Source: a virus (Duplodnaviria > Caudoviricetes). Taken from it: DNA of 64,000 nucleotides. Location of the stretch: positions 8,322 to 72,321 of the IMG/VR virus record IMGVR_UViG_3300029913_000012, one strand, 5' to 3'. Shown one piece after another: positions 7,546-47,464 of this stretch (within the stretch, counting starts at the first letter, position 1; each line of letters starts with the position of its first letter). The translations under genes were made by a program, and so were the position numbers. The notes under the pieces were generated by a model. That model was not told the origin of the DNA. It saw only the letters and a list, made by a program, of their open reading frames with translations, and ran no database searches.

Positions 7546-8811
7546 TTATATATTAAATTTTAATATATCTGATAATTCATTATTTAATTTTTCTGAAATA
7601 TCTTCATCATATTTAATTCTAATTAATTTAATATTATTATTAGAACAAAAATTCGTTTTTATATTATCATTTATTTTTGTATTTTTTAATTTTTTATCTC
7701 CACCAAAATAATCAATAGATTCATAATGTTGAATTCCGTCATATTCTATACATATTTTGTGTGTAGGTAGATAAAAATCAAATGATAATTTTAATTTATT
7801 GATACATTTTTCGAATTTTTCTTGTCTTCTAAAAAATATATTATTTTTTATTAAATATTTAAAAATTATATTTTCTCCTTTACTCTCTTTACAATATGGA
7901 CATCCTCTTTTATTACAATTTATATGATCATTAGGTGTCAATTGAAATATACCATGTTTTGAACAAATTATTTTTACTTTATTAAAAACTCCAATATAAT
8001 CAACTAATGAATAATCATATTTATTTTCATGTAGTTTTTTAGCTTTTTTTATAAAAAATTCTGTATTTGATTTTTTTTTATCATCAGCGCATTTTTTACA
8101 ACCATTACCTCTAATGTGATATACTGGTTCTTGTTCGAATTCACCATGTACTGGACATATTATTTTAACTTCATTATATTTACTTACATAATCAACTAAT
8201 GAATAATCATATTTATTGTTATGTTTTATTTTAGATTTTTGTATAAAATTTTCTTGTTTATTGCACAAAGTACAACCAAAATCTAAATGTGCTTGAGGAA
8301 ATTGTTCAAATTCGCCATGTATTGGACATATTATTTTAACTTTAGTGTATGAGTTTGTATAATTAGTTAAACTATAATCATATTTATAATTGTGAATTTT
8401 TTTAGAGTTTTTTATAAAATCATTTTTTGTTATTCCGCATAATTGGCATCCACATCCTTCTAAATGAACATAAGGTAATTGTTCAAATTTACCATGAATT
8501 GGACATATTATTTTAACTTCATTATGAGATCCTTTATAGTCAACTAATGAATAATCATATTTATTTCCATGTATATCTTCGGATTTTTTAATAAATTTTT
8601 TAGTTGTTAATTTTAATGTACCTCCGCATATTTGACAACCATGTTTTTCATTTATGTGTTTATCAGGTTTCTGTTTAAATTCTCCGTGCTCAGGACAAAT
8701 AATTTTAACATCAGTTCTATTATTTTTATAATCAACTAATGAATAATCATATTTATAATTGTGCACAATATTTGATTTTTCAATAAATTCTTGTGTTGTC
8801 AACTTTTTCAT
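7546..8811 (-). CDS. Homing endonuclease-like protein, CPxHG zinc-finger repeats plus Vsr/DUF559-like nuclease
   Basis: Five YDYSLVDY...KIICPxHGxF.Q....H..G.GC..C repeats; C-terminal SKGE...FDFYLP...IEYDGIQH. Confidence 0.8.
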   Translation of the reverse strand: MKKLTTQEFIEKSNIVHNYKYDYSLVDYKNNRTDVKIICPEHGEFKQKPDKHINEKHGCQICGGTLKLTTKKFIKKSEDIHGNKYDYSLVDYKGSHNEVKIICPIHGKFEQLPYVHLEGCGCQLCGITKNDFIKNSKKIHNYKYDYSLTNYTNSYTKVKIICPIHGEFEQFPQAHLDFGCTLCNKQENFIQKSKIKHNNKYDYSLVDYVSKYNEVKIICPVHGEFEQEPVYHIRGNGCKKCADDKKKSNTEFFIKKAKKLHENKYDYSLVDYIGVFNKVKIICSKHGIFQLTPNDHINCNKRGCPYCKESKGENIIFKYLIKNNIFFRRQEKFEKCINKLKLSFDFYLPTHKICIEYDGIQHYESIDYFGGDKKLKNTKINDNIKTNFCSNNNIKLIRIKYDEDISEKLNNELSDILKFNI

Positions 8812-8884: not shown

Positions 8885-9106
8885 CTAATTTTCTTGATAC
8901 CACATCCTTTTAGTTAATATCATTCTAATTATATTTATATCAATTTCATAATCATCACTAATTTCTTTTAAATTTAAATAATTTTTATTTTCATATTTTA
9001 ATTTGTCAATTTCTAACTCATTTTTTTCTAATAATTCTTCATATTTTTTAAACATCAACTTCAATTTTTTAGTATCAGTTTTTTCGTATTTTTCAATTGT
9101 TTTCAT
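8885..9106 (-). CDS. Hypothetical protein
   Basis: 73-aa ORF overlapping its upstream neighbour. Confidence 0.5.
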   Translation of the reverse strand: MKTIEKYEKTDTKKLKLMFKKYEELLEKNELEIDKLKYENKNYLNLKEISDDYEIDINIIRMILTKRMWYQEN

Positions 9107-9359
9107 ATTCAGAAATTTGTTTTAATTTATTTAATTTTTTTATTCTATCATATTTAAGTTTATTGTTAATTTGATCTAATTCATATTCTACTCGTGCTGC
9201 TGTAATATTTATATGATTCACCATATTATCTGAAATATATTTTACATAATCATCAGAATAATGAGGTTCTTCTAAATATTCTATAAAACCTTTAGAAGGA
9301 TCATCATCTATATAAACAGAATTTATTAGATTATCTTTTATATATTCTTCATATGTCAT
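9093..9359 (-). CDS. Hypothetical protein with RxxKL C-terminal tag
   Basis: Ends YDRIKKLNKLKQISEYENN. Confidence 0.55.
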   Translation of the reverse strand: MTYEEYIKDNLINSVYIDDDPSKGFIEYLEEPHYSDDYVKYISDNMVNHINITAARVEYELDQINNKLKYDRIKKLNKLKQISEYENN

Positions 9360-14616: not shown

Positions 14617-15432
14617 ATGTTAATAATAGAAAAAATTAAAATTAAACTAAATAATAAAAATATTAAACATTTCAAAAAATTAGGATACGATAATAAATAT
14701 GGTGAAATTATAGAAATAAACTGTAATGAATTATCTGAAAATAGTAAATTTAGAGTAAATATTATTTGTGATAGATGTGGTGAAATTAAAAATATAACAT
14801 ATCAAGAATATTTAAATCAACGTAAAAAATTTGATTTTGATACTTGCAATAAATGTAAATTTGAAAAAAATGATATTACAAATTTGAAAAAATATGGTGT
14901 AAAAAATACATTTGGCTCAAAATATTTTATCGAAAAATCAAAAATAACAAAATTAGAAAAATACGGTGATGAGAATTACAACAATATAGAAAAAACTAAG
15001 AAAACTAATTTAATAAAATATGGAACAAAATATTCATTTTTAAATGAAGAAGTTAGAAATAAAGTATTGACTTCTCATATAAAAAGTGGATTATGGTTAA
15101 GAAAAGAAGATAGAACTGATTTTAAAAATTATTATTTAAAAGTTTACAGTGAAACATTAAAAAATAAGAAAGAATTATTAGATAATTGGAATGGTTATGA
15201 TTATTATTCTAATGAATATATTTTAGATAATTTTAAATTAGACAGTAATGATAAAAAATATCCAACGATGGATCATAAAAAATCTATAAGATATGGATTT
15301 GATAATAATATATCATCTGATGAGATATCTAATATTGAAAATTTATGTATAACAACTCGTTCTAATAATTCTTCTAAAAGTAAAAAAAATGAATCTGAAT
15401 TTAATATTATACAATATGATAACAAAATTTAA
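14617..15432 (+). CDS. HNH homing endonuclease
   Basis: CDRC/CNKC zinc sites, KKYG repeats, C-terminal PTMDHKKSI...ENLCITTRSNNSSK. Confidence 0.75.
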   Translation: MLIIEKIKIKLNNKNIKHFKKLGYDNKYGEIIEINCNELSENSKFRVNIICDRCGEIKNITYQEYLNQRKKFDFDTCNKCKFEKNDITNLKKYGVKNTFGSKYFIEKSKITKLEKYGDENYNNIEKTKKTNLIKYGTKYSFLNEEVRNKVLTSHIKSGLWLRKEDRTDFKNYYLKVYSETLKNKKELLDNWNGYDYYSNEYILDNFKLDSNDKKYPTMDHKKSIRYGFDNNISSDEISNIENLCITTRSNNSSKSKKNESEFNIIQYDNKI

Positions 15433-25394: not shown

Positions 25395-27377
25395 TTATCT
25401 ATTTTTTGGATAATTAAATATTTTATTTGTAGATTCAAATTTTTTTCTCAATTTTTTTGTTTCTCTATTATCGAAACCTAATATATAAATATATTTATGT
25501 TTTTGATTTATGATTCTAATATGACATTTTTTTATTGATTCTATTGAATAATTTTTCATTATTTCTGCAATATTATTTGGAATTTTTTCCCATAAAATTT
25601 TTGTTTTTTTATTCCATTCATCTTGCCATATAATATTAATAGTTTTTAAATAAGATTTGTAGAAATTTAATTTTCTAAATCCTCTACTATTAACCCAACC
25701 TTTATTTATATTATCAGGATCAAAATATAATTTAGTTGATCCAAAATTATTACCAAGATAGTAAAAATTACAAGCTTGATAAATTGTACCAAGTTCTTTT
25801 GCTTCAGTGTCAGCATAAGCTTCAAATAATCTAAATTCTGTATTTTTAACCATCCATTTAATTGACCACATAATTAATGAACTAGCTAAATTCTTTGGTG
25901 TCCAAGATGCACATGCTCCTCTACTTATCAATTTTTCTATACTTGATGTATCATCACCTAATATATTGGAAAATGCATTTGGAGTAGACATAACAATTGC
26001 TCCAGCCATTATACCTTTATATGTTGCTATAAATCTATGAGTAGGTCTATTTGGCATTTTACCAAGCCATTCATATTTTTTTATAAAATCAACAATATCT
26101 GTTGTTCTTATATCATCTTTATCTATAAATTCAAAATTAAAATCAGAAACTTTAAGATTTTTATAGTCAAAATTTATTTTTATAATATCATCTTTTAATG
26201 TATTTAATCTAATGTCATATTGCCAACAATGTTCTTTATTGTATGTTATTGATTCTATTATCTTATTGAATATTTCATAATTTTTATTCACTATAAAAAT
26301 AAAATTATATCCTTGTTCTTTACATGCTAATTGTTTTGCAATGTTCTTATCTTTATGCTTATCATACCAATAAGATGATTTTATTTCTATTATCAAATTT
26401 AATTTATCATTATAAAAATCAGGAAAATATATACATTCTTTATTATTAAAAATATATTTTATTGAATTTCCTCTTTTTATTTTAATTAAATCAAAATACC
26501 TATCTAAAAAATCTAATTCATATTCTCCTTGATAATAAATATCAGTTTCTTTAAATTTATAAATACGTAATCCATTTTTTAACATTTTTTGATATATATC
26601 ATCATTTTGTGCTGGATAATATACTCCATATTTTTCAAAAATTATATTAGATAATTTTTGCTTTATTAATTCATTTTGCATCGGATTTTCAAAACCATAT
26701 TTATCTAAACAAGTTTCTTTATATTTATCTCTGTTATTATAATTTTCATCATTATATTTATCTTTTTTTATATTAGATATTTTATCTTTAATAAATTTAG
26801 ATTCAAATGGAGATTTCGCTTGATATCGTTCTATGCAAGTATCTTCTACTTTTTTCTTTATTATATCATTTTTTAAAGGTGAATCTACACCATACCTATT
26901 CATTAATGTTAGTTTAGATTTTTCTTTAAATTCATCAGTAGACATATATTCATCAGTACCATATCTTTCATTCGTTGTAAACCTTACTTTATTTTTAATA
27001 TCAATATTTTGCATGGAATATTCAAATCCATATTTTTCTAAATTTGTCTTTTTTATTTTATCCTTAAACTCTTCTAATTTTAATGGATGATCTACACCAT
27101 ATCTAATGATATTTGTTTCTTTACACCTAATTCCTGAGCATTTTTTACAATGATAAATATTATCAGTTTCTATATTTCGTAAATATGAAAAATAAGAAAT
27201 ATTGTTTTTTTCTTCACATTTATCACATAATACATCAATTTTAGTTTTTGATGTTTTAGGTAATTCATTAACATTAATAATTATAATATCGCCAGATTTT
27301 ACGTCATATCCTAAATTTTTATAATAAGTAATGTTCTTATTTGTAGTCTTTATTTCTATTTTTTTAGTTATTATCAT
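25395..27377 (-). CDS. Homing endonuclease (PD-(D/E)XK) fused to Mom-like GNAT domain
   Basis: KYG repeats; YFPDFY...IIEIKS nuclease; C-terminal FIKKYEWLG, ISRGAC.SW.PKN.AS, AYADTEAKELGTIYQACNFYYLG resembling Mom family SYAD....GTIYQA.N..YLG. Confidence 0.7.
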   Translation of the reverse strand: MIITKKIEIKTTNKNITYYKNLGYDVKSGDIIIINVNELPKTSKTKIDVLCDKCEEKNNISYFSYLRNIETDNIYHCKKCSGIRCKETNIIRYGVDHPLKLEEFKDKIKKTNLEKYGFEYSMQNIDIKNKVRFTTNERYGTDEYMSTDEFKEKSKLTLMNRYGVDSPLKNDIIKKKVEDTCIERYQAKSPFESKFIKDKISNIKKDKYNDENYNNRDKYKETCLDKYGFENPMQNELIKQKLSNIIFEKYGVYYPAQNDDIYQKMLKNGLRIYKFKETDIYYQGEYELDFLDRYFDLIKIKRGNSIKYIFNNKECIYFPDFYNDKLNLIIEIKSSYWYDKHKDKNIAKQLACKEQGYNFIFIVNKNYEIFNKIIESITYNKEHCWQYDIRLNTLKDDIIKINFDYKNLKVSDFNFEFIDKDDIRTTDIVDFIKKYEWLGKMPNRPTHRFIATYKGIMAGAIVMSTPNAFSNILGDDTSSIEKLISRGACASWTPKNLASSLIMWSIKWMVKNTEFRLFEAYADTEAKELGTIYQACNFYYLGNNFGSTKLYFDPDNINKGWVNSRGFRKLNFYKSYLKTINIIWQDEWNKKTKILWEKIPNNIAEIMKNYSIESIKKCHIRIINQKHKYIYILGFDNRETKKLRKKFESTNKIFNYPKNR

Positions 27378-27406
27378 ATCATATATAGTTTTAATATCAC
27401 AAAAGT

Positions 27407-28436
27407 TTATATTAATATAGTTTGTATTTTAAATTTAACATCTTCATCTGATTCATTAAAATTTAATCTTAATAAATTAATATTATTATCTTTACAATAT
27501 TCAGATTTTAAATTATCACGCAATTTTATTATTTCAAATTGTTTATCTCCACCCCAATATTCAATTGATCTAAAATGTTGTTCACCATCATATTCTATAC
27601 AAATATTATAATCTGGTAAATAAAAATCAAAATATAATAACGACTTATATTTCAAATCAGGAAAAGTTTTTTTGCCTATTATATTCTATATTTAATTCAT
27701 TCAATATATTACTTATTAATAATTCTCCTTTTGATTCTTTGCATATTGGACAACCTACTTTATTATATAAATGTTCTCCTGGTTTTTGTAAAAATATACC
27801 ATGTTTAGGACAAATAATTTTAACTTTTGTATAAGAATTAATATAATTCACTTCACTATAATTATATTTATAGTCATGCATTTTATTTGCTACGCATGGA
27901 AAAATTTTTGAATAATTTTCACGCGTAGTTAATATCATTTTATCTATACTTTCTTTGGAGTGACTGAAATCTATTTTATTTTTTACTTCATCATTTTGTA
28001 AAGGATATTTAACACCAAAATTTTTTAAATTTGTTTTTATTACTTTATTTTTATATTCATCTGTTTTTTGATAATATTCAATACCATATTTTTTTAAACA
28101 TGTTTTTTTAGATTTATCTTTTATTTCATCACTTTGAAAAACATTTTCAACTCCATATTTTTTTAAATTTGTTTCTTTTGTTTTTTCGTTTTTGCATTTG
28201 AAACAAAAATGTTTTTCAGAATTATTATTTGTTATTCTATTATAATCTTTAATTGCCATAATTTTTTCATCGCCACATACATCACAACAAATATTAATCT
28301 TTTGCTTTGATCCATGAGATAAATCAGATACATTAACTTCTATAATATCACCTGAGTGCATTAAAAGATATAATTTTTTATAATAACTTACATTTTTATT
28401 TGTTACTTTAACTGAAACAATTTTAGATAGTATCAT
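27407..28436 (-). pseudogene. Homing endonuclease split by a +1 frameshift in an A7 run
   Basis: AGGCAAAAAAACTTTTCCTGA: removing one A joins ...NRQK to TFPDLKYKSLLYFDFYLPDY..IEYDGEQH, matching intact paralog 28441..29361 (RQKSFPELKHKRLLYFDF). Confidence 0.75.
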
Positions 28437-28440
28437 ATGC

Positions 28441-29361
28441 TCATTTTATTTGTAAAAAATTTATAATATTTTCTTTTATTTCAGAATCTGATTCATTGAA
28501 TTTTAACCTTAATAAATTAATATTATTTAATTTACAATATTCATTTTTTAACAAATCTCTAAATTGTAACTCATAAAAATTATCATCGCCTCCCCAACCT
28601 ATAATAGATTTAAAATGCTGTTCACCATCATACTCAATACATGCATTATAATCAGGTAAATAAAAATCGAAATATAATAATCTTTTGTGTTTTAATTCTG
28701 GAAAAGATTTTTGCCTATCAAATTTTATATTAAATGATTTCAATATTTTGGAAACCAATAATTCACCTTTTGATTCTTTACATATTGGGCAACCTGCTTT
28801 ACTATAAATATGATCTTGAGGAGTTTGATAAAATGATCCATGTTTAGGACATATAATTTCAATTCTAGTATACGAATTAATATAATTCATATTACTATAA
28901 TCATACTTATCTCCATGAATATTTTTTGCTTTTTCTGTACATTTGTATTCTCCTAATATAGTTCCTAATCTTGTTTTTTCAATTCCACATTTTCTACATC
29001 CTGATCCTTTAATGTGTTCAGTTGGAAATTCTTTGAATTCTCCATGTATAGGACATATAATTTTAACTTTTGTTAAATAATTTTTATATATTGTTATAGA
29101 ATAATCATAAAAATTATTATGTATTTTTGATGCTTGAGTTGTGAATTCTTCTGTTGTTTTTGATTTTTTTATTTTAGAACATTCAAAACAATCATTTCCA
29201 TGTAGATGATTTTTTACAGTTTGATTAAAAATACCATGAATTGGACAAATTATGGTTATTTTTGAATTTATATCTATATAATTCATTAAAGAATAATCAA
29301 ATTTATAATTATGAACTTTATTGAATCTTTTTAATAATTCGTCTTCTGTTAATTTTTTCAT
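28441..29361 (-). CDS. Homing endonuclease-like protein, CPxHG repeats plus Vsr-like nuclease
   Basis: Paralog of 7546..8811; FDFYLPDY..IEYDGEQH. Confidence 0.8.
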   Translation of the reverse strand: MKKLTEDELLKRFNKVHNYKFDYSLMNYIDINSKITIICPIHGIFNQTVKNHLHGNDCFECSKIKKSKTTEEFTTQASKIHNNFYDYSITIYKNYLTKVKIICPIHGEFKEFPTEHIKGSGCRKCGIEKTRLGTILGEYKCTEKAKNIHGDKYDYSNMNYINSYTRIEIICPKHGSFYQTPQDHIYSKAGCPICKESKGELLVSKILKSFNIKFDRQKSFPELKHKRLLYFDFYLPDYNACIEYDGEQHFKSIIGWGGDDNFYELQFRDLLKNEYCKLNNINLLRLKFNESDSEIKENIINFLQIK

Positions 29362-29520: not shown

Positions 29521-31353
29521 TTAGATAAGTACACCTGCACTATCAGTAACTAAAATAGTCATAAATTGCTTCCAAGGAAAGAATCCTATATCGGCGACTG
29601 CGTAGCGGCTTCTGATTAGCATTCTTGGAGCCCATGTGGCTTCGGAAATTAACTGAATAGATTGGGCCATCAAATAAGGTACGAATACCAAACCTGGTTG
29701 TTCAACACTATTTTTTCTTCCTAAGAATATTCTGTTATCATCCCATCTTTGATAAGGGTCAACGTATATGCTAATATTTCCGATATTTCCCATTGGGAAT
29801 AATTGTCCATTAGCGTTTAAGTTAGATTTTACTGGATTAAGAGTATAACCTGCAACGTCCTGAATTACAGAAGCTAAATTACCATTTGTTACAAGGTATT
29901 GAGCTGGTCCAACACGACCTTCAGTTGCAATAAAGTTAGAAGCGTTATTAAGTTTAGCAATAAGTTTCCTTTGGATTGAGTGAGTAGTTTCACCTCCTGG
30001 GGTAGCAGCACCAACTTTCAAATAAGTATCAACGTTAAAGTCAAATTTAGAAACACCAGCAGCATCTTTAGGAGTTGTCCAAGCGATTCTGTTTTTATCA
30101 GCCATTTCTGTAACTTTAAATATGATTTGTTTTGAAATAGTTTGAGTTAACTCATTAACAAGAACTGATTCAAGTTTTTGAACGATATCCATACCTGTTG
30201 CAGCTTTAATATCTTCAATTTGAGTTCTTTTTAATGAACTAGAAATTTCAATATCACCTACTTGTATAGTTTTAGTAAAGATATCTGGTCCGATAACATT
30301 TGGATAAGTTCTTTCGTCTTCATCTCTTACCATTGGTTGTTTCAAATACCAACCTGCTGAGAAACCAGGAATATGATCTTCTAACAATGATACTAAGTCA
30401 ATAGTAACACCAGTTAAAGTAACTGCTTGTTTAGCAGTTGTACCAGAAGCTACTTCAATAACAATTCCGCTATTCAAAATATCAGAAATAGAATAAGCTG
30501 CAGTTGGAAAAGTATTTCTATCATTTACAAATCCCCAACCTGCGTTGTTAGAACCTGGATTAAATTGACGGAAAATTCTAAACATTGGATATCCATTAAT
30601 ACGAGACCATCCTAAAAATTCCATCCAACCTTCTTTGGTAGGAGTTGTTCCATTTGCTGGATAATTAATCAAAATTGGATCAAATCCATTAATGTCAGCA
30701 GGACCTGTAGCTCCACCTTGTGCAAAATATAAAGCAGTAGTATTATATGTAGGAACCTGAGTTACAAGAGAACCACCTGATAAGTGAACATAAATAGGGT
30801 TAGTTAAACCACCAATTTTTTCTCTTACTGGCATTCCGTTAGCATCCAATTTAAGAGCCATAGAAGCTTTTAATGCTGTATTCAAATTAGCACTTGTTGC
30901 AGCATCAGAGATATTAAGAGAGAACATAATTGGTCTTTCATCTTTCAATGTAGAATCAGCTAAGTTATCATATTTAAAATCTACGAATAACATATCAACT
31001 TTTGGAGAAGAAGCTGGTTTAACAGCAACTAAGTCCAAACCAATAGTTTGAGCAGCAATTTTCATAGAAACTGGAAGCAAATTTTGTCCTATATCACCAG
31101 AACCAATTCCACCTGGAGTTCCTGCACCATAATCACCCCATACTAAACCAGGAGTTGAGGCAGGTTGAGCAGCTTGTACAGCACCCATACCATTTAAGTT
31201 ACCTAATGTACTATAAGCAACGTTTTCATTCATTGAATGCATTTCAGCATATTCAGACATCCATTTTTGTTTGTAAGTGTCAGCTACTCCTAATGATTCC
31301 AAGACTGGTTTCCATTTAGCAACTGCTTTTTGATTGTCAATTATTAAATTCAT
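29521..31353 (-). CDS. gp23: Major capsid protein (T4 gp23-like)
   Basis: KW.PVLE N-terminus, LVAVKPASSP, EDIKA..GMD..L...L..E, IYVDPY, GLVFVPY, P.M.IRSRY; biased codon use of a highly expressed gene. Confidence 0.95.
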   Translation of the reverse strand: MNLIIDNQKAVAKWKPVLESLGVADTYKQKWMSEYAEMHSMNENVAYSTLGNLNGMGAVQAAQPASTPGLVWGDYGAGTPGGIGSGDIGQNLLPVSMKIAAQTIGLDLVAVKPASSPKVDMLFVDFKYDNLADSTLKDERPIMFSLNISDAATSANLNTALKASMALKLDANGMPVREKIGGLTNPIYVHLSGGSLVTQVPTYNTTALYFAQGGATGPADINGFDPILINYPANGTTPTKEGWMEFLGWSRINGYPMFRIFRQFNPGSNNAGWGFVNDRNTFPTAAYSISDILNSGIVIEVASGTTAKQAVTLTGVTIDLVSLLEDHIPGFSAGWYLKQPMVRDEDERTYPNVIGPDIFTKTIQVGDIEISSSLKRTQIEDIKAATGMDIVQKLESVLVNELTQTISKQIIFKVTEMADKNRIAWTTPKDAAGVSKFDFNVDTYLKVGAATPGGETTHSIQRKLIAKLNNASNFIATEGRVGPAQYLVTNGNLASVIQDVAGYTLNPVKSNLNANGQLFPMGNIGNISIYVDPYQRWDDNRIFLGRKNSVEQPGLVFVPYLMAQSIQLISEATWAPRMLIRSRYAVADIGFFPWKQFMTILVTDSAGVLI

Positions 31354-31456: not shown

Positions 31457-33829
31457 TTAAGAACTTAATTTATCAAATGCTGATTTGAAATAATCAATCT
31501 GAGATTCACTCAATTTAGAGCCATCTACGATATGATTTTCTGTGATTAATTGTTTTGCAGGTTTTTCATTTGTGTAACGTGCTAAATCTCTACTATACCA
31601 AAAGCTCTCAAATTTTTGTACTGTATCTAGAGCAGGAAATAATCTTGCTGTTGCCAACACTTGGTTTTTAATAGTTTCATCTAATTTTTTCCAAATTAGG
31701 GTTAATTCAGATGGCATTGATTCAATTAATAAATCATTAAATGATTTTCTTTTTGGAGAAAGAGCTTCATTCATAAGTGAAATTACTTGTGCTTCACTTG
31801 TGTATTTACCTTCACTTTCTTTTAATAACATTTTAACTTTAGTTTTGTCATCGTTAGATAATGAATAATAAGCAGCTTTTCTTTTTTCTGTTAAGAACAT
31901 CATGAAATTTGGTTGATCGTTTTCAGAAGCTTTTCTTTTTTTAGTTTCATTGATCAAATTATTTATATTTTCGTTTAATGTATTTTGTACTTTTTGTACT
32001 TTACTTCCTAATCTAGTGATTTTAGATTCATGTACTTCAACAGGTTCTTCTTCTGTGTCTAATTGTATTACTACCATACCATTTTGTGGATTGGTTGCAA
32101 GTACTTCTCCAGTTTTATCTCCAACTGCAATAGTTTCACCTGGAGTAGGTAATCCACCTTCTTCAGTTTCTGCTTGAATTGGTTCTTCTGTTGTTGGTTG
32201 TACTGGTTCTTCTGTTGGTAATTCACCTTCTACTGCTGGTTGAGCTTCTACATCACCTTCTTGTTTAATTGGTTGATCTTCTGTTTGTTGAGCTTGTGCA
32301 GGTTCAGTTGCAGGGCCTTCTATTGTTGGAGCTTGTTCTTCGTAATATCCATTGATATCAATATCTTTAGTATTTTCATCTTCTGTTATGAAATCAAAAT
32401 TTTCAAGAACTTTTCCAGTTTTTAATCTTTCTGTAAGAAGTTTTGATTTTTCAATAGTTTTATCCAAATTTTCTGCGATATAATTTGTATAAGCCATAGA
32501 ATCGTCTAAATTTTCAGCGATATATTCGGAGTAAGAAATGTTATTATCTACATGTTCAGCGATATATTCTGAGTAAGCTATATTATTATCAAGATTTTCA
32601 GCGATATATTCTGAGTAAGCTATATTATTATCAAGATTTTCAGCAACATATTCCGAATAGATAATAGAATTATCCAAATTTTCTGCTAAATATTCTGAAT
32701 AAACAATAGAACTATCAAGATTTTCAGCAACATATTCTGAATAATCAATAGATTTATCAAGACTTTCAGCTATATATTCTGAATATTTGATGTTTTTATC
32801 AACATGTTCTGCTATATATTCTGAAAAATCAATATTCTTATCTAATGTTTCAGCTATATATTTACCATAATCAATAGATTTATCAAGATTTTCAGCTATA
32901 TATTCTGAATAGTTTCCTATTTTTTCAATATTTTCAGCAAGATAATCATTGTGTTTAATTAAATCTGTTGTGGTTTTTTTCAACTGTACATTTTCATTTA
33001 CAACAAATTGCATACTTTCTGCAAGATAATCTAGGTATTTCACCATTTTTGATTGTTGTTCATGTAATTTTTCGTAATAATCAAGTACACTTTCTAATTT
33101 AGCAGGATCAAAATCAACATTATTACCTTTTACCATATCATTAATTTTTGTTTTAAAGGTTTCAATTTCTTCTGTCAAATAATTAGAATACTCTGTCATT
33201 TGTTTTTTTGTTACAAAGTCTTCGTTGTTCATTTGGAATAATTCATTTATTTTTGACTCGTCAGATATATCATATATCCTAAAGTAATCTTTATCACTAA
33301 ATCCATAACTTTCATTTAATGATTTGACTTCCATTCTTGCTGAACTAAATCCAGGATCAGCAACAGCATCATAAGTAAATAATTTTTTAACGGTAACTGT
33401 ACCATCTGATTCTGTGATGCCAGCGGCTCTAGATGATACGAAAATAGGGCATCCATCATCTACAAGTGCCTTAGCTTCTTTACCCCAATGGGTATTTAAT
33501 AATCGGATTTCTCCCTTTACTGAATTTGATGATTTATCAAATATCGCACTTTCAATTGTGTGCGAAACTCTTGATAATGAGGTATCAAACACATCAGGGT
33601 GGTCAAATTCCCCGTAGACTACACCAAGTTGATTTTTACGACTTAGTAATTCATCTAAATGAGGTAGGAACTTATCAGCAGTATAGATTCTATCGTTTCT
33701 ATTCTTTATGTTAAATTCCGTAAACGTACCCTCTAAAATGTAATCACCTTTCTTTTGATTGGTATTTTCATTTATTGGTTTCTGTTTAAGACCGTCCATA
33801 CAATGTTCTACAATAAGAACTGGTTTCAT
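31457..33829 (-). CDS. gp21: Prohead protease (gp21-like) fused to repeat-rich scaffold/core domain
   Basis: LEGTF, KNRNDRIY, YGEFDHP, VSH, LNT.WGK, VSSRAAG, TYDAVADPGFSSA; followed by 12 x 14-aa repeats and an acidic Pro/Glu linker. Confidence 0.9.
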   Translation of the reverse strand: MKPVLIVEHCMDGLKQKPINENTNQKKGDYILEGTFTEFNIKNRNDRIYTADKFLPHLDELLSRKNQLGVVYGEFDHPDVFDTSLSRVSHTIESAIFDKSSNSVKGEIRLLNTHWGKEAKALVDDGCPIFVSSRAAGITESDGTVTVKKLFTYDAVADPGFSSARMEVKSLNESYGFSDKDYFRIYDISDESKINELFQMNNEDFVTKKQMTEYSNYLTEEIETFKTKINDMVKGNNVDFDPAKLESVLDYYEKLHEQQSKMVKYLDYLAESMQFVVNENVQLKKTTTDLIKHNDYLAENIEKIGNYSEYIAENLDKSIDYGKYIAETLDKNIDFSEYIAEHVDKNIKYSEYIAESLDKSIDYSEYVAENLDSSIVYSEYLAENLDNSIIYSEYVAENLDNNIAYSEYIAENLDNNIAYSEYIAEHVDNNISYSEYIAENLDDSMAYTNYIAENLDKTIEKSKLLTERLKTGKVLENFDFITEDENTKDIDINGYYEEQAPTIEGPATEPAQAQQTEDQPIKQEGDVEAQPAVEGELPTEEPVQPTTEEPIQAETEEGGLPTPGETIAVGDKTGEVLATNPQNGMVVIQLDTEEEPVEVHESKITRLGSKVQKVQNTLNENINNLINETKKRKASENDQPNFMMFLTEKRKAAYYSLSNDDKTKVKMLLKESEGKYTSEAQVISLMNEALSPKRKSFNDLLIESMPSELTLIWKKLDETIKNQVLATARLFPALDTVQKFESFWYSRDLARYTNEKPAKQLITENHIVDGSKLSESQIDYFKSAFDKLSS
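32450..32955 (-). repeat. 42-bp/14-aa tandem repeat x12 (YSEYIAENLDxxIx)
   Basis: Visible in protein and DNA (tatattctgagtaagctatattattatcaagattttcagc). Confidence 0.9.
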
Positions 33830-33984: not shown

Positions 33985-35622
33985 ATGATATTATCAAATA
34001 AAATAGAAATTCGAATTAATATATCAAATATAAAACATTATAAAAAATTATATAAAAATATTAAAATAAATGATATAATATTGGTTAATGTGAATGAACT
34101 AACTAAAGGATCTAGATATAAAGTTAAAATGAGATGCGATAAATGTGGAGATGAGTATGAATCATGTTTTAATATATTATATAAAAATAATTCACTTAAA
34201 AAATTTATATGCAAAAAATGTAAAAGAAAAATAACTATTCAAGAAAAATATGGAGTAGATAATGTTTTTCAATGTAATGAAATAAAAGAAAAATCGAAAA
34301 TAACAATTAAAGAAAAATATGGAGTAGATAATGTATCACAAAATAAAGAAATTAAAGAGAAAAAAATGAATACTAATTTTAAACATTTTGGAGTTAAATG
34401 GGGATTATCATCTAATATAATTAAAGAAAAATCGAAAATAACAATTAAAGAAAAATATGGAGTAGATAATGTATCACAAAATAAAGAAATCAAAGAGAAA
34501 AAAGAAAAAACTTGTTTTAAAAATAACGGAGTAAATTTTATATCTCAGCATAAAAATTTTAAACAAAATATAAACAAAATAAATTTAATAAAACTTCAAA
34601 AAAAATATTCAAATTTAATAAATATTGAAGGAGACAATTTTACATTTTATTGTGAAAAATGTGAAAAAAACTTTGAAATTTATAAAAAAACATTTTATGG
34701 TAGATATAATCTAAATGTTGATGCATGTGTATTTTGTAATCCTATAGGATCTGTTCATACATCTGGATCAGAAACTAATGTATATAATTTCATTAAAAAA
34801 AATTATAACGGAGAAATCATACAAAATAATAGAAATATTATAAAACCATATGAATTGGATATTTATATTCCTGAATTAAAAATTGCATTTGAATATAATG
34901 GATTATTTTGGCATAATGAAAATAATACTTCTAATAATTATCATTTAAATAAAACTGAATTATGTGAAAAACTAGGAATACAATTAATGCATATTTGGGA
35001 GGATGATTGGTTATATAAGCCAGATATAATAAAATCTATGATATTAAATAAATTAAGTAAAAATTATAATAAAATATTTGCACGTGAAACAGAAATTAAA
35101 GAAATAAATGATAATAAAATAGTTAAAGATTTTTTAAATAATAATCATATTAAAGGATTTATTAGTTCCAAAATTAAAATAGGATTATTTTATAAAAATG
35201 AATTAGTTAGCTTAATTACATTCAGTAATCTTAAAATTCCAAAAAATAAAATTGAAAAAAATTATGAATTATTAAGATTTTGTAATAAGTTAAATACTAA
35301 TATTATAGGAGGTGAAAATAAATTATTCAATTATTTTATTGAAAATTATAATTCGAATAAAATATTAGCATATATAGATATAAGTAATTGTAACAGTGAA
35401 TTATATGAAACATTAAATTTTAATAATATAGGCAAAATTAAACCAAATTATTATTATATAATAAATGGAATACGACTAAATAAATTTAATTTTCGTAAAG
35501 ATATATTAATTAAGCAAGGTTATGATAAAAATAAAACTGAGCATGAAATAATGAAAGATAGGCATTATTATAGAATATATGATTGTGGACAATTAAAATT
35601 TGAATATATTAATAAATTATAA
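33985..35622 (+). CDS. Hef-like homing endonuclease
   Basis: KYGVDNV repeats; YELDIYIPELKIAFEYNGLFWH nuclease; C-terminal FLNNNH.KG, YELLRFC, RIYDCG domain. Confidence 0.75.
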   Translation: MILSNKIEIRINISNIKHYKKLYKNIKINDIILVNVNELTKGSRYKVKMRCDKCGDEYESCFNILYKNNSLKKFICKKCKRKITIQEKYGVDNVFQCNEIKEKSKITIKEKYGVDNVSQNKEIKEKKMNTNFKHFGVKWGLSSNIIKEKSKITIKEKYGVDNVSQNKEIKEKKEKTCFKNNGVNFISQHKNFKQNINKINLIKLQKKYSNLINIEGDNFTFYCEKCEKNFEIYKKTFYGRYNLNVDACVFCNPIGSVHTSGSETNVYNFIKKNYNGEIIQNNRNIIKPYELDIYIPELKIAFEYNGLFWHNENNTSNNYHLNKTELCEKLGIQLMHIWEDDWLYKPDIIKSMILNKLSKNYNKIFARETEIKEINDNKIVKDFLNNNHIKGFISSKIKIGLFYKNELVSLITFSNLKIPKNKIEKNYELLRFCNKLNTNIIGGENKLFNYFIENYNSNKILAYIDISNCNSELYETLNFNNIGKIKPNYYYIINGIRLNKFNFRKDILIKQGYDKNKTEHEIMKDRHYYRIYDCGQLKFEYINKL

Positions 35623-37321: not shown

Positions 37322-39079
37322 TTAAAATTCCGCTCCACCTTGGGCTTGACCTCCACCTTGACCTCCACCTTGAGCTTGACCTCCACCTTGAGCTTGACCT
37401 CCACCTTGAGCTTGACCTCCACTTTGGGCTTGACCTCCACCTTGGGCTTGACCTCCACCTGGCATACCACCTTCGCCACCACCTGGCATACCACCTTCAC
37501 CTCCACCTGGCATACCACCACTCATTCCTCCTCCTTCACCTGCTGTACCGCTCATCATTTTATATTTATTATTAGATTCAATATCTTTATCAGTAAATTT
37601 CATAATATTTCTCACAATCCACTCAATCGAAAGGTAAGGTTTCCCCTCACCGTCTTGTAGATTGCTTGATAAAGTTGATGATATTTCTGCTCTTTTTGCT
37701 AAATTGTTTAAGTATTTCCATTCTTCAAATAAATCATTAGAATTAAAATTTAATTTAATATAACTTTCAAATACTCTATCACTACTTAATTCAGGAAAGT
37801 CTAATACCATTTGTATTTTTAATGGTTTAACTAAAACTTCTTTAAATAATGTTCTTAATCTACCAACAAAATTTTTAAATCTTATTTCATCCATAGTAAT
37901 TGAAGCAGTATCATCATAAAAATTACCACCTCCCTGATCTTCATCTAATCTTGAAAAAGGCATTTTAGATGCTCTTTTAAATGATTTATAAAACCACTGT
38001 AAAGATATATCTTCATTTAATTCAGCTTGTTGTGGTTGTAGAATCTCCATTTCTGGAGTTCCTAATTCAGATGTTGGAAACCAATAATCTTTTGAATGAG
38101 GTATTTTAGTTGAGCCATTTATATATGGTACTCCTGTTGTATCATCCCATTCAATATCTTCATGATATTCACTCATCAATTGAGTAATTTGCTGTTCAGC
38201 TTGTTGACGAGTCAGTCCATTTACAGGAATAACAAATTTTTTATATATTGAAGCTTGATTTAAATTGTACATTAATTTAGTAAACTCTAATAATTTTAAT
38301 TGATTATAAGGTTTGATTAATCCTTCAACATAACTTGTTTCGTCATAATCTAAATTATTTGAATATGAAATATAAATAATATTAGCATCTAATAAAACTC
38401 TTCTTAATTGAGGAACATCTGGATTTTGAATCCATACTACAGTTCCAGTACCTGGCTCAGCAGCTACAATTAATGTTAATGGATCCAATAAATTAAGTTC
38501 AATTATATTTTTTTGGTCATCATCATAAACAATTTCAAATGATAAAAATCCATCAATTAAAAATGTTTTCATGTAATTCCAAGCAGTTAATCCGTCGTTA
38601 AAATTAAATGAGTTATAGACTTTTTTAAAATTTTCTTGATATTTAACTCTGATTGATTGATCATAATTATCTGGCAAATCAGTAACAGTACAAAAATAAT
38701 TATCATCATCATAATTAATTGCTTCTTCTGCTATTCTGGTAACATAATCTTTTATTTCTTCCTTTATTGCATATTGGTGTAAAATTTTTCTTTTATCCAA
38801 ATATCTACGATCTAAATATGCGATAGATTTCTTTTCTAATATTTTAGATATTATTTTTTTTGTAAATAAGTCGTACATATTTGTACCAGGTTCGTAAAGT
38901 AAATTACTGGTATCTTGAAATGCTCCAATAGCCTGACTATTTCTAACAACCATTTCTTGATCATCCATTCCGAAATTACTCAATTTTCTTAATATTTTAT
39001 TACCAAAACTTTTTCCTACATTACCTCGTCCAAAATCATACATTGAATTTGGCTGATTATATCTGTTATATGTTGCCAC
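37322..39079 (-). CDS. gp20: Portal protein (T4 gp20-like) with Gly-rich C-terminal repeats
   Basis: FLIDG, LDP, SYVE.LIKPYNQLKLLE, DYWFP, SKMPFSRL, ITMDEIRF..FV.RLR, S.EWI.RNI. Confidence 0.95.
   Translation of the reverse strand: MATYNRYNQPNSMYDFGRGNVGKSFGNKILRKLSNFGMDDQEMVVRNSQAIGAFQDTSNLLYEPGTNMYDLFTKKIISKILEKKSIAYLDRRYLDKRKILHQYAIKEEIKDYVTRIAEEAINYDDDNYFCTVTDLPDNYDQSIRVKYQENFKKVYNSFNFNDGLTAWNYMKTFLIDGFLSFEIVYDDDQKNIIELNLLDPLTLIVAAEPGTGTVVWIQNPDVPQLRRVLLDANIIYISYSNNLDYDETSYVEGLIKPYNQLKLLEFTKLMYNLNQASIYKKFVIPVNGLTRQQAEQQITQLMSEYHEDIEWDDTTGVPYINGSTKIPHSKDYWFPTSELGTPEMEILQPQQAELNEDISLQWFYKSFKRASKMPFSRLDEDQGGGNFYDDTASITMDEIRFKNFVGRLRTLFKEVLVKPLKIQMVLDFPELSSDRVFESYIKLNFNSNDLFEEWKYLNNLAKRAEISSTLSSNLQDGEGKPYLSIEWIVRNIMKFTDKDIESNNKYKMMSGTAGEGGGMSGGMPGGGEGGMPGGGEGGMPGGGQAQGGGQAQSGGQAQGGGQAQGGGQAQGGGQGGGQAQGGAEF
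37334..37520. repeat. 18-bp (GGGQAQ) and 24-bp (GGMPGGGE) tandem repeats in the portal tail
   Basis: ccaccttgagcttgacct and ccacctggcataccacc units; locally GC-rich. Confidence 0.9.
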
Positions 39080-45259: not shown

Positions 45260-46201
45260 ATGAAAAATGATATGTTCTGGTATAAATACCAACCTAAAAG
45301 CTTAAAAACAATTATATTATTACCAAGAGTTAGAAAATTGATTGAGAATGGTTTAATCGCTAATATGATATTTTATAGTGATACTCCAGGAACAGGAAAA
45401 ACCACATTAGCCAGAATATTATGTAAAGAAACAGATAATATTGAATTTAATGCATCAAAAGATACAAGTGTTAATATATTAAGAGATCAATTGCAAACTC
45501 ATTGTAAAAGTTTAAATCCTTTTATGAAAAATGCTCAAAAAACTATATTTTTAGATGAATTTGATGGTGTATCTACAGAATATAAAAAAGCAATGAAAGG
45601 TTTTTCAGATACATATCAGCATGTAAGATTTATACTTACTACTAATTATATTCAAGATATTGATGATAAAATATTATCAAGATTTATGAAAGTAGATTTT
45701 AATCCTAAAAATAAAGAGGAAGAAGAATATTTGCAAGTTATGTATCTTAAATATTTGAAAGCGATATCAGAAAAAAATAAAATGAATATTTCTGATGATG
45801 AAATAAAGAAAATAATCATGATTAGTTTTCCTGATTTAAGAAGTGCAACACAAAAATTACAAGAAGTATTTATTACTAAAAATACAGATCAATTTAAATC
45901 AATAAGTTCTTCTAGTTATGATGCAATTTTTGAATTTATGCTTGATGGTAGAAATAATATTGAAGATAACTATAATTTTGTTCTAAATAATTTTCAAGAT
46001 AATCCATTAGAATTAATGAAAGCTCTTGGTAGACCTCTTTTTAATAGATTAATGTTAATTGACAATTCAAATATTATAAAAATTGGAGCATCACTTATAA
46101 ATGTTCAACGATCTTATAATGAAAGATATACAGAGACAATTGATCCTATTATTCATTTAATATCTTATGTAACTGACATAAAAACGAATTTAAAGATTTA
46201 A
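45260..46201 (+). CDS. gp44: Sliding clamp loader ATPase subunit (gp44/RFC-like)
   Basis: W.KYQPK, PGTGKTT Walker A, FNAS, LDEFD Walker B, RFILTTN, SRF, FPDLR. Confidence 0.92.
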   Translation: MKNDMFWYKYQPKSLKTIILLPRVRKLIENGLIANMIFYSDTPGTGKTTLARILCKETDNIEFNASKDTSVNILRDQLQTHCKSLNPFMKNAQKTIFLDEFDGVSTEYKKAMKGFSDTYQHVRFILTTNYIQDIDDKILSRFMKVDFNPKNKEEEEYLQVMYLKYLKAISEKNKMNISDDEIKKIIMISFPDLRSATQKLQEVFITKNTDQFKSISSSSYDAIFEFMLDGRNNIEDNYNFVLNNFQDNPLELMKALGRPLFNRLMLIDNSNIIKIGASLINVQRSYNERYTETIDPIIHLISYVTDIKTNLKI

Positions 46202-46203
46202 CA

Positions 46204-46662
46204 ATGCCAAACTTTTTATATAGAATTAATGATATTTCATCTAAATATTATATAATTAATAATGAATATATAATAGAATCTAAATACTCATTAGATAATG
46301 AGTCATTAAAATCTTTGAATAACATAAAAAATAATATAATAAATAATGATGCTTATATTTATGGTGAAGTAGTAACTAAAGATGATATTGATCATCAAAT
46401 TAATTTACTTAATATATCTCATATTATTAAAGATATTGATATTAATTTATGTCATATTAGAAAATTGAAATTGAAAAAGTTAAAAGGAGAAGAAATAAAA
46501 GAATTATATAATGTTATTATTAAAATTATAATTTTAGATACAAATAACGGTAAATTTATTAAATCATTAATGATTGAAAATATTAAAATTAAAACTTATC
46601 TTAGTTGTTTGAAAGATGATATTAATAATATAAAAATAATAACAGAAAATATTAGTTATTAA
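46204..46662 (+). CDS. Degenerate prohead-protease paralog with inserted RKLKLKKLKGEE
   Basis: YIYGE...NISHII...IIILDTNNGKFIKSL aligns to gp21 VVYGE...RVSHTI...IRLLNTHWGKEAKAL; lacks the GE..HP His and SSR Ser. Confidence 0.65.
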   Translation: MPNFLYRINDISSKYYIINNEYIIESKYSLDNESLKSLNNIKNNIINNDAYIYGEVVTKDDIDHQINLLNISHIIKDIDINLCHIRKLKLKKLKGEEIKELYNVIIKIIILDTNNGKFIKSLMIENIKIKTYLSCLKDDINNIKIITENISY

Positions 46663-46676
46663 AAATAATAATTTAA

Positions 46677-47178
46677 ATGATAGAAAAAGAAAAAATAATA
46701 GAAAAATGGAGTTCAATAATGGGTAAATTGACTAATGAAAATATCACAGATTTATCATCAATGAGCAGTAAAAATATAAATTCTATTCAAGATGAGCTTA
46801 ATGCAAATGATTATAATAGAACTAATTTTAGTTCAATTACATTTCCTATTGCTCAAAGAATAATGTCTTACACACTTGCTGGAGGAGGAATGAGAAAATC
46901 AAAAAAAAAAACAATTAAAAGAAGATAGAATAAATAAACTTAAAGAACTTAAAGGAGAAGAACCTAATGTAGTATTACCAGATGATGAAGAATTTGATGG
47001 ATTAGTATCAGTTATGCCAATGTCTTCTCCATGCACATCTTTATTATACATGGATTTTGTATATGATTATTGGGATCCAATAAAAAAACTTAAAGATGAT
47101 AGAATATCTAAGTTAGATAAAATAAATATTTCATTTAGAAAAAGTAAATTAAAATATATAGAAAAAATAATAAAATAA
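46677..47178 (+). pseudogene. Truncated major-capsid paralog interrupted by a +1 shift in an A11 run
   Basis: Frame 1 IEKWSSIM...FPIAQRIMSYTLAG; after the A-run at 46901-46911 the shifted frame reads QLKEDRINKLKELKGEE...LVSVMPMSSPCTSLLYMDFVYD (12/22 identical to MCP LVAVKPASSPKVDMLFVDFKYD), stop at 47178. Confidence 0.75.
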
Positions 47179-47179
47179 T

Positions 47180-47464
47180 ATGGATGATATAAAAGCGTTT
47201 AAAGAAAAAGTTATTAATGACTATATTTATCATAATATAGATTTAACTCATGCTGGAGCCAAAGATATAAAATTTGGATTGAAAAGCGTATTAGGTGAAG
47301 AGCCTGCAATTAAATTTTTATATAAAGAGAATATGAAAATTAATGAAACCAGCGGAAAAGTTGAAAGATTACCAAATGAATTAGAATCAATTGAAGTATA
47401 TTATACATATATTGGTTCTGATAATATACCACATGCTAGTCATATGACATATATTGTCAACTAA
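47180..47464 (+). CDS. Hypothetical protein
   Basis: 94-aa ORF starting just after the 47178 stop. Confidence 0.65.
   Translation: MDDIKAFKEKVINDYIYHNIDLTHAGAKDIKFGLKSVLGEEPAIKFLYKENMKINETSGKVERLPNELESIEVYYTYIGSDNIPHASHMTYIVN

Follow-up and report, generated by a model that had tools for sequence, protein, structure and literature searches.

We analysed a 64,000-nucleotide (nt) window of phage DNA (positions 8,322 to 72,321 of IMG/VR record IMGVR_UViG_3300029913_000012), part of a 72-kb contig from an uncultured T4-like phage with about 22% G+C, and identified two small adjacent genes, directly behind the clamp-loader gene gp44, that probably are working accessory genes encoding mimics of head-morphogenesis proteins. 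Gene 1 (46204..46662, plus strand) encodes a 152-amino-acid (aa), putatively catalytically dead paralogue of the prohead protease with the whole gp21 fold, as assessed by hhalign, Foldseek, VIA-align and a check of individual residues. Gene 2 (46677..47178, plus strand) encodes a mini-protein that BLASTP and hhalign show to be homologous to the N-terminal part (~140 residues) of the major capsid protein; in this strain it is broken into two frames, the upstream one of 83 aa. The presumed parents of the two genes are encoded on the minus strand: the real prohead protease, fused to a repeat-rich scaffold in a 790-aa protein (31457..33829; phrog_207, E 7.4e-33; Peptidase_S77/S80), and the 610-aa major capsid protein (29521..31353; PF07068 Gp23, E 4.8e-24).

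Homology and predicted structure of the two proteins

Gene 1 had no significant plain BLASTP match to the real protease (best E 0.8, to a different part of the protein), and no Pfam match was found at E<=0.1. Profile comparison placed the gene 1 family (5 orthologues) on 20 protease N-domains with an hhalign probability of 95.5% (E 1.6e-8), gene 1 residues 28-129 aligning with protease residues 46-128 and 17 residues remaining unmatched at the insert described below; the family also matched PHROG 207 through its L001 orthologue only (E 0.0038). The AlphaFold model of gene 1 (mean local confidence, pLDDT, 83; predicted template-modelling score, pTM, 0.78) matched T4 gp21 (PDB 5JBL) in Foldseek with prob 1.00 (E 1.8e-3, TM 0.63/0.58; next entry prob 0.47) and in VIA-align with Z 15.1 (root-mean-square deviation 2.3, 129 aligned residues spanning 1-152; next Z 5.3), and 5JBL was the sole clear match of this model among solved structures. 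In BFVD, 14 models matched gene 1 at E<=0.001, and the named ones are prohead core proteases or scaffold proteins, save one uncharacterised protein. One BFVD row bore the name of T4 gp68, which raised the idea that gp68 is itself a core protein with the protease fold; we rejected it (gp68 against gp21, BLASTP E 3.2) and saw no link of gene 1 to gp68. PDB sequence searches with the family profiles of genes 1 and 2 gave 0 hits and one at E 0.53.

The catalytic His (in YGEFDHP) and Ser (in SSR), whose columns are filled in T4 gp21 and in the window's own protease, are missing in all six aligned members of the gene 1 family (6/6). Because the model matches 5JBL over its full length and both residues are absent throughout the family, gene 1 is, on the predicted structure, a complete but inactive protease fold, a pseudo-enzyme and not a fragment. 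A sequence-only reading of this DNA had earlier aligned gene 1 to the phage's gp21 and seen that it lacked the catalytic motifs, and the profile and structure matches and the residue check bear out both points.

For gene 2, homology was already visible in BLASTP against the capsid protein (16/34 identities, E 3e-5), and a gene 2 profile of 13 sequences aligned with a capsid profile of 16 at an hhalign probability of 98.3% (E 2.2e-14), residues 3-139 falling on capsid residues 6-140. Relative to the capsid protein, this alignment shows a deleted Gly/Ala-rich loop and 38 inserted residues. In the reverse direction, capsid residues 1-170 matched by tblastn the mini-genes of the related loci L014 (E 1e-14) and L010 (E 2e-7, capsid residues 6-129), and gene 2 orthologues matched the PHROG capsid families phrog_138 (E 3.3e-4) and phrog_28442 (E 4.4e-6); no Pfam Gp23 match was found for gene 2. 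The homology to the capsid N-terminus, also proposed in the sequence-only reading, is thus firm at the level of sequence comparison. Gene 2 ends after the part aligned with capsid residues 6-140 and is without the HK97-type core (A and P domains), and it therefore cannot build a shell. Its model is mostly disordered (pLDDT 59), with three helices located at the N-terminus, in the insert and in the C-terminal tail.

The 38-residue insert of gene 2 (46881..46998, plus strand; GGGMRKSKKxQLKEDRINKLKELKGEEPNVVLPDDEEFD), delimited by the hhalign gap, is not found in the capsid protein and forms a helix over residues 76-91 (pLDDT 84-87). It is followed by the best conserved part of the protein, the capsid-like segment GLVSVMPMSSPCTSLLYMDFVYD (46999..47067, plus strand), which was recognised by BLASTP and by alignment with T4 gp23, where it meets ...CGVQPMNSPTGQVFAL..., and by a C-terminal basic helix (47077..47175, plus strand; helix 134-165) in which a regular-expression search found two further motifs, RISKLDKI and RKSKLKYI, resembling the tag that both inserts share. 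The alignment places the retained segment on the gp23 stretch ...FDICGVQPMNSPTGQVF..., and the aligned stretch ...FDICGVQPMNSPTG... we take to be the Gol peptide, a review (PMC3014915) giving the size of Gol and not its coordinates. Of the earlier identification of this segment with Gol, the correspondence to T4 gp23 stands on the alignment, and the name Gol itself is presumptive.

The two frames of gene 2 join by a +1 shift over a run of 11 adenines (A11; 46901..46911, plus strand), where the intact allele reads A7-C-A2, with one A fewer and A>C at 46909. That the frames belong together, as first proposed from the sequence alone, is confirmed by intact gene 2 homologues of 152-168 aa found among 5.8 billion proteins, the unbroken gene in relatives measuring 165-168 aa, and by a contig from sequencing run X7, of another study, which carries an intact gene 2; contigs from runs X1 (possibly the source run) and X6, which share year and habitat and may be one campaign, carry A11. 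P0005/P0006, which are 99% identical to gene 2, read KSKKQQ where the window has KSKKKQ. Since the A11 run is not kept in relatives, it does not represent a programmed shift. We conclude that A11 is an allele of this strain, a homopolymer error being less likely, and slippage on it could still give some full-length gene 2 protein. A public gene call of 100 aa (P0011) reads the downstream frame through a TGA (46891-46893) as Trp, probably with the wrong genetic code.

Distribution, selection and a shared basic helix

Gene 2 was detected in 15 of the 17 related loci, with L013 devoid of it and L008 ending too early to tell, and gene 1 in 6/17, amounting to 3 distinct sequences from one sub-clade only. 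A profile search with gene 1 found 9 proteins only. The gene 2 profile, searched against 1.84 billion representatives, matched 416 metagenomic clusters at E<=0.001, of which 80 reach 1e-10 and 19 reach 1e-30; the best 150 of these 416 matches have a median length of 132 aa, 144 of them not exceeding 200 aa, and in 149 the first residue is Met. Subfamilies of these mini-capsid proteins bear different charged inserts. With gene 1 limited to one sub-clade and gene 2 far more widespread, the two are not an obligate pair.

Viral-contig scans gave no locus for P0044 and one locus (L109) for P0066. The latter (L109:2983-3426, on a 436-kb contig with 30% G+C) encodes a mini-capsid member with the insert ENRDGKID... 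beside glycosyltransferase-like genes, and the mini-capsid family therefore extends beyond the A+T-rich clade and the gp44 neighbourhood. A cultured-phage collection of 50,697 records held no match to the locus DNA, P0004 or P0047, and neither gene of the window found a meaningful family in Pfam, PHROGs, NCBIfam or PADLOC. A protein atlas returned leads only (best score 0.88), including one cluster in which 58% of the members carry Gp23. By contig matches, the phage is found in peat, soil and freshwater metagenomes.

Ratios of nonsynonymous to synonymous substitution (dN/dS) by the Nei-Gojobori method, which are rough at this composition and divergence, were 0.50-0.63 for gene 1 and 0.48-0.58 for gene 2, compared with 0.06-0.09 for gp44 and 0.06-0.21 for the 94-aa gene behind gene 2. 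Gene 1 orthologues are mutually 42-55% identical, and the N-domain of the real protease is 90-94% identical in the closest relatives. Both frames are open across diverged relatives, and conservation in gene 2 is segmental, being 0.62-0.71 in the capsid-like segments and the insert (insert 0.70, Gol-aligned segment 0.71), with its minimum in the linker (0.38). On the L014 contig, the mini-gene can be compared with the capsid gene beside which it occurs: the BLAST-aligned segment has 40 of 52 bases in common, and the 12 that differ change, by our own reading, only 2 of 17 residues, so that the peptide itself looks to be kept. Because the frames are open in relatives, dN/dS lies below 1 and conservation is segmental, we conclude from these sequence comparisons that genes 1 and 2 are real, under selection and not decaying. 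The description of the two genes as degenerate copies has been dropped. Neutral decay, for which a dN/dS near 1 and absence in relatives had been named as signs, was looked for and not seen, dN/dS being 0.48-0.63 and the frames staying open in relatives.

Both genes carry a shared insert missing in their parents, appearing as hhalign gaps of 17 and 38 residues, as the sequence-only reading had noticed. In gene 1, the insert RKLKLKKLKGEEIKELYN (46459..46512, plus strand; approximately residues 86-103), which is not present in the real protease, consists of a basic helix and a loop; the helix spans residues 82-93 in the model and the insert is kept in 5/5 orthologues. The common motif KLKxLKGEE occurs at 46468-46494 and 46936-46962 and at no other place in the six frames of the window. 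The Leu codons differ between the two copies by our own reading of the DNA, which suggests a protein-level feature.

A looser form of the motif, R[KI]xK[LI]xx[LI], occurs 11 times in the 105 open reading frames (ORFs) of the window, against 0.5 +/- 0.7 in 300 shuffles, with 7/11 occurrences inside the last 30 residues of the protein. In 14 related loci it was found 35 times, in 24/179 ORFs, against 0.8 +/- 0.8 in shuffles, a count inflated by the choice of these loci around gene 2; three outgroup loci contained 0 occurrences. The motif was defined after it had been seen. A basic helical variant, [DE]R[KI]xK[LI]xx[LI], is found at 9093-59699 of the window and in L001-L014 and L105-L107, at 20- to 40-fold over shuffles. 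From these occurrences, the tag is best described as a clade-wide portable motif that is not private to genes 1 and 2. Its presence on about ten other, otherwise unrelated small proteins, mostly at the C-terminus, overturns the idea that it marks the two genes as one dedicated system, and no sign was seen of the effector handle proposed in the sequence-only reading.

The position of the tag also varies: it is internal in gene 1 and C-terminal in the related dead protease P0171, and in most mini-capsids it stands between the N-arm and the Gol-aligned segment, lying inside that segment in P0051 and P0056 and with more copies at the C-terminus. An (L/I)xE protease site precedes the tag in some copies, inconsistently. 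A 73-aa protein of L009 (L009:5395-5616) consists of a piece of the scaffold repeat (E 3e-10) followed by the tag, and a possible third member of the set is an 88-aa protein of the window (9093..9359, minus strand) with the C-terminal tag DRIKKLNKL and a weak BLASTP match to the scaffold repeats (E 0.011). Small proteins combining the 14-residue scaffold repeat (..SEYIAENLDK.I.Y..) with the tag were thus noted at L009:5395-5616, at L007:3491-3739 and, weakly, at window 9093-9359; scaffold-repeat pieces, dead protease and mini-capsid together mirror the order of the head module.

Genomic neighbourhood

Genes 1 and 2 belong to a packed plus-strand run, gp44 - gene 1 - gene 2 - 94-aa gene, with spacers of 2, 14 and 1 nt; gp44 (45260..46201, plus strand; phrog_168, E 2.4e-43) is its first gene, and gene 1 starts 2 nt past the gp44 stop. 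The two genes lie beside DNA-replication genes and ~12 kb away from the head module, which comprises, on the minus strand, the portal (37322-39079; Portal_T4), the protease-scaffold fusion and the capsid protein. The protease-then-capsid order of genes 1 and 2 matches that of the head module, in line with the sequence-only reading. The scaffold part of the fusion contains some twelve 14-residue repeats in tandem, together with a stretch that is acidic and rich in Pro/Glu; whereas gp21 and gp22 are separate in T4, protease and scaffold here form a single 790-aa protein.

The 94-aa gene (47180..47464, plus strand) follows gene 2 in relatives and is conserved, standing directly 3' of gene 2 in most loci and behind one intervening gene in L007, L009, L105 and L106. 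It matched no family, usually lies upstream of an RNase H-like exonuclease and is under strong purifying selection. The stretch from gp44 to this gene is a variable slot, in which distant relatives hold another family of 146-188 aa (MEENIWKFWD...YPCKF). All-against-all BLASTP further revealed many paralogous homing-endonuclease-like genes in and around the head module (7546-8811, 14617-15432, 25395-29361 and 33985-35622), three of them in tandem separating the capsid gene from the structural genes that come next. Under translation table 11, none of the long ORFs of the window is interrupted.

Possible functions and comparison with known systems

We read genes 1 and 2 as competitive mimics because they appear to be real genes under selection, behave as accessory genes and consist of binding modules, and because neither can do what its parent does. 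The parental functions are out of reach since the catalytic residues and the capsid core are missing and the gene 2 protein is predicted to be disordered when alone. The traits of accessory genes are seen in the distance from the head module, in the divergence of gene 1 orthologues to 42-55% and in a patchy distribution, gene 2 being absent in L013, broken in this strain and intact in X7. Competition against host sensing of head proteins is the role that we tentatively place first, as a possibility and not as an expectation. The mimics would be made along with the replication genes, ahead of the head proteins, and would bind, without consequence, any factor by which the real protease or the N-terminus of the capsid protein is recognised, host systems that sense the head protease or capsid proteins being the leading candidate targets. 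Cleavage of a disordered loop of a CD-NTase (the nucleotidyltransferase of the CBASS defence system) by gp21 is described as the trigger of CBASS (PMC12991175), and the dead protease could bind over such protease-sensitive baits. The first ~100 residues of gp23 are described to bind the elongation factor EF-Tu and to enable the Lit protease (PMC3014915); the mini-capsid could fill sites that bind the capsid N-terminal quarter, whether the pocket of a sensor or the EF-Tu surface used by Lit-type proteases. Gene 2 displays the capsid N-terminal helix, the N-arm and the Gol-aligned segment, and each gene has gained the basic helix of the clade.

Several observations weigh against this role. Late-promoter motifs (TATAAATA; 53 against 49.8 expected) and sigma-70-like sites (61 against 51.7 expected) occur at chance level in DNA this rich in A+T, with 0 terminators, so that expression timing is unreadable from motifs, and RNA run X18 yielded one 227-nt contig, which falls on the 94-aa gene only and leaves genes 1 and 2 uncovered. 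PADLOC gave no hits for genes 1 and 2, which is uninformative here, and no Pfam, NCBIfam or PHROGs match pointed to defence or counter-defence. An activating epitope retained in a mimic could set off a sensor such as Lit or CapRel instead of blocking it; the two genes do not always co-occur; the spread of the tag over unrelated proteins ties it to no one task; a dN/dS of ~0.5 also fits plain relaxed constraint; and no immune sensor, host or partner turned up for the mimicry envisaged here. Complex prediction of gene 1 with a gene 2 homologue (score 0.00, mark 0.32) is neither support nor counter-evidence.

A broader form of the same idea, which we regard as rather unlikely, is that large uncultured phages possess a modular kit, here of dead protease, mini-capsid and scaffold-repeat pieces with the basic helix as address label, that blinds immunity sensing head maturation; its targets would be protease-triggered sensors of the CBASS type and Lit/CapRel-type sensors of the capsid N-terminus. 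If true, the mini-capsid family, with its 416 clusters, would be a large undescribed class of anti-defence proteins and could serve to find the binding partners of the conserved Gol region. Bacterial immunity is known to be triggered by head proteins and now also by the activity of the head protease, and the locus offers selected candidates in this context: an inactive protease that could trap baits and a disordered mini-protein made of the most conserved capsid part.

Regulation of the phage's own head assembly is the strongest alternative to mimicry of sensed proteins, and although we doubt it, we take it seriously. The dead protease would join the real pentamer or cover its substrates, restraining it until proheads form, and the mini-capsid would cap the scaffold- or neighbour-binding surfaces of the capsid protein or aid nucleation, with the basic helix placing them at membrane, DNA or core. 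In T4 the retained parts are described as facing the scaffolding core and making subunit contacts (PMC9546572), gp21 is described as a pentamer with gated activity (PMC9958956), and the T4 genome encodes the gp21 inhibitor inh (annotation in AF158101). Scaffold-repeat fragments with the same tag exist (L009, E 3e-10), and the order of protease, scaffold piece and capsid piece mirrors the head module. Set against this, the genes sit among replication genes and not in the head module, have evolved at several times the rate of their parents, and in some strains are missing or broken, as assembly factors seldom are. Should this be their role, they would reveal the pieces of the capsid N-terminus that can bind independently of the rest, and also what inactive protease copies do, a question dating from 2017.

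We judge it unlikely that gene 2 instead acts early on EF-Tu, on GroEL or on both, retuning translation or readying the chaperonin for the large amounts of capsid protein to come, with gene 1 unrelated. The first quarter of gp23, its most conserved part, is reported to bind EF-Tu-GDP and inhibit its GTPase (PMC3014915), the gp23 N-terminus is reported to send fusion proteins to GroEL (PMC3012670, citing Snyder and Tarkowski 2005), and gene 2 retains just this quarter of the capsid protein. Both targets are, however, so abundant that a small accessory protein would be needed in bulk, and the dead protease and scaffold pieces would be left unexplained.

Weapons against co-infecting relatives, that is, dominant-negative pieces that poison the head assembly of a rival but spare the phage's own, sufficiently diverged proteins, seem still more improbable to us. 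By our own, uncounted reading, most mini-capsids carry the general T4-type motif (GLVSVQPMSAPTG.LFYMDF) and not the clade's own capsid version (LDLVAVKP.SSPKV.LLFVDFKYDN), and a genome full of homing endonucleases is a sign of frequent co-infection; yet L014, P0051 and P0056 carry the clade's own version, and self-poisoning would be hard to avoid.

That a partial duplication of the head module left both genes behind as inert remnants is largely refuted and in our view very improbable. The frameshift in this strain, the gene order and a dN/dS above that of the neighbours could be read this way. However, frames of 150-168 codons stay open in many diverged lineages at ~22% G+C, dN/dS is below 1 with conservation concentrated in particular segments, and the gene 2 profile finds 416 clusters, nearly all of the best 150 being small proteins.

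We give scarcely any credence to gene 1 being the missing small clamp-loader subunit gp62, for which its place directly after gp44, its start coupled to the gp44 stop, the 44-62 gene arrangement of T4 and the lack of a gp62-like gene by tblastn in the 72-kb contig or related loci might be cited, since its fold is that of a prohead protease, L007-L014 hold other genes or none at this position, and the contig is only part of a genome. In that search, the L016 protein following gp44, which we take to be gp62 by its motifs, matched nothing at the gene 1 position (tblastn, best E 0.8-1.0 elsewhere). The remaining probability belongs to something else.

Among known systems, inactive protease paralogues are already in print: truncated 'cryptic' prohead-protease paralogues are described in phiKZ-like giant phages, namely SPN3US gp117, 201phi2-1 gp206 (145 aa) and PhiPA3 gp143 (136 aa) (Ali et al. 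2017, PMC5694885). These are small (~140-150 aa), diverged and presumably inactive second copies away from the true protease, and gene 1 likewise is a second, shortened, diverged copy outside the head module and without catalytic residues; in BFVD, its model matched a 145-aa uncharacterised 201phi2-1 protein with E 0.018, a fold-level link only. The two differ, as far as description and fold allow comparison, in that the former belong to the phiKZ-like lineage and gene 1 comes from a T4-like phage with a gp21-type parent. Moreover, gp117 is said to keep Ser and Asp (PMC5694885), whereas gene 1 is without His and Ser, has an inserted basic helix and lies next to a capsid-derived mini-gene. With T4 gp21 (5JBL, Peptidase_S77), gene 1 shares the fold over its whole length and profile-level homology to the phage's own gp21-type domain; unlike it, gene 1 is without catalytic His and Ser, scaffold/targeting extension and Pfam match, and lies outside the head module. 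T4 Inh is annotated as a phage-encoded brake on the prohead protease (AF158101), the part that the dead protease would play in the assembly role.

The mini-capsid family is large and without a matching family in Pfam, PHROGs, NCBIfam or PADLOC, and the two members searched against the cultured-phage collection matched nothing there. Compared with the Gol/Lit system of T4 gp23, gene 2 has kept the first quarter of the capsid protein and with it the segment aligned to T4 ...CGVQPMNSPTGQVF..., which we take to be Gol; here, however, the segment is found on its own, in a small protein that also has a charged insert and a basic tail, and the correspondence is positional only. The capsid-targeting sequence of T4 (on IPI-III and Alt) is likewise a short portable peptide on unrelated small proteins, though it is described as an N-terminal stretch of ~10 aa ending at the cleavage site (PMC9958956), whereas the tag described here is a basic helix and mostly C-terminal or internal. 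In the literature covered, including a term search of a November 2026 review of phage countermeasures, we found no capsid- or protease-derived countermeasure. A parallel in mode is offered by DSAD1, which is described to mimic a tail-tube protein and trap DSR2 (Yin et al. 2024, PMC10973363). DSAD1, whose target and effect are described as shown by experiment, fills the sensor pocket for a virion protein without activation, the mode that is proposed here for genes 1 and 2.

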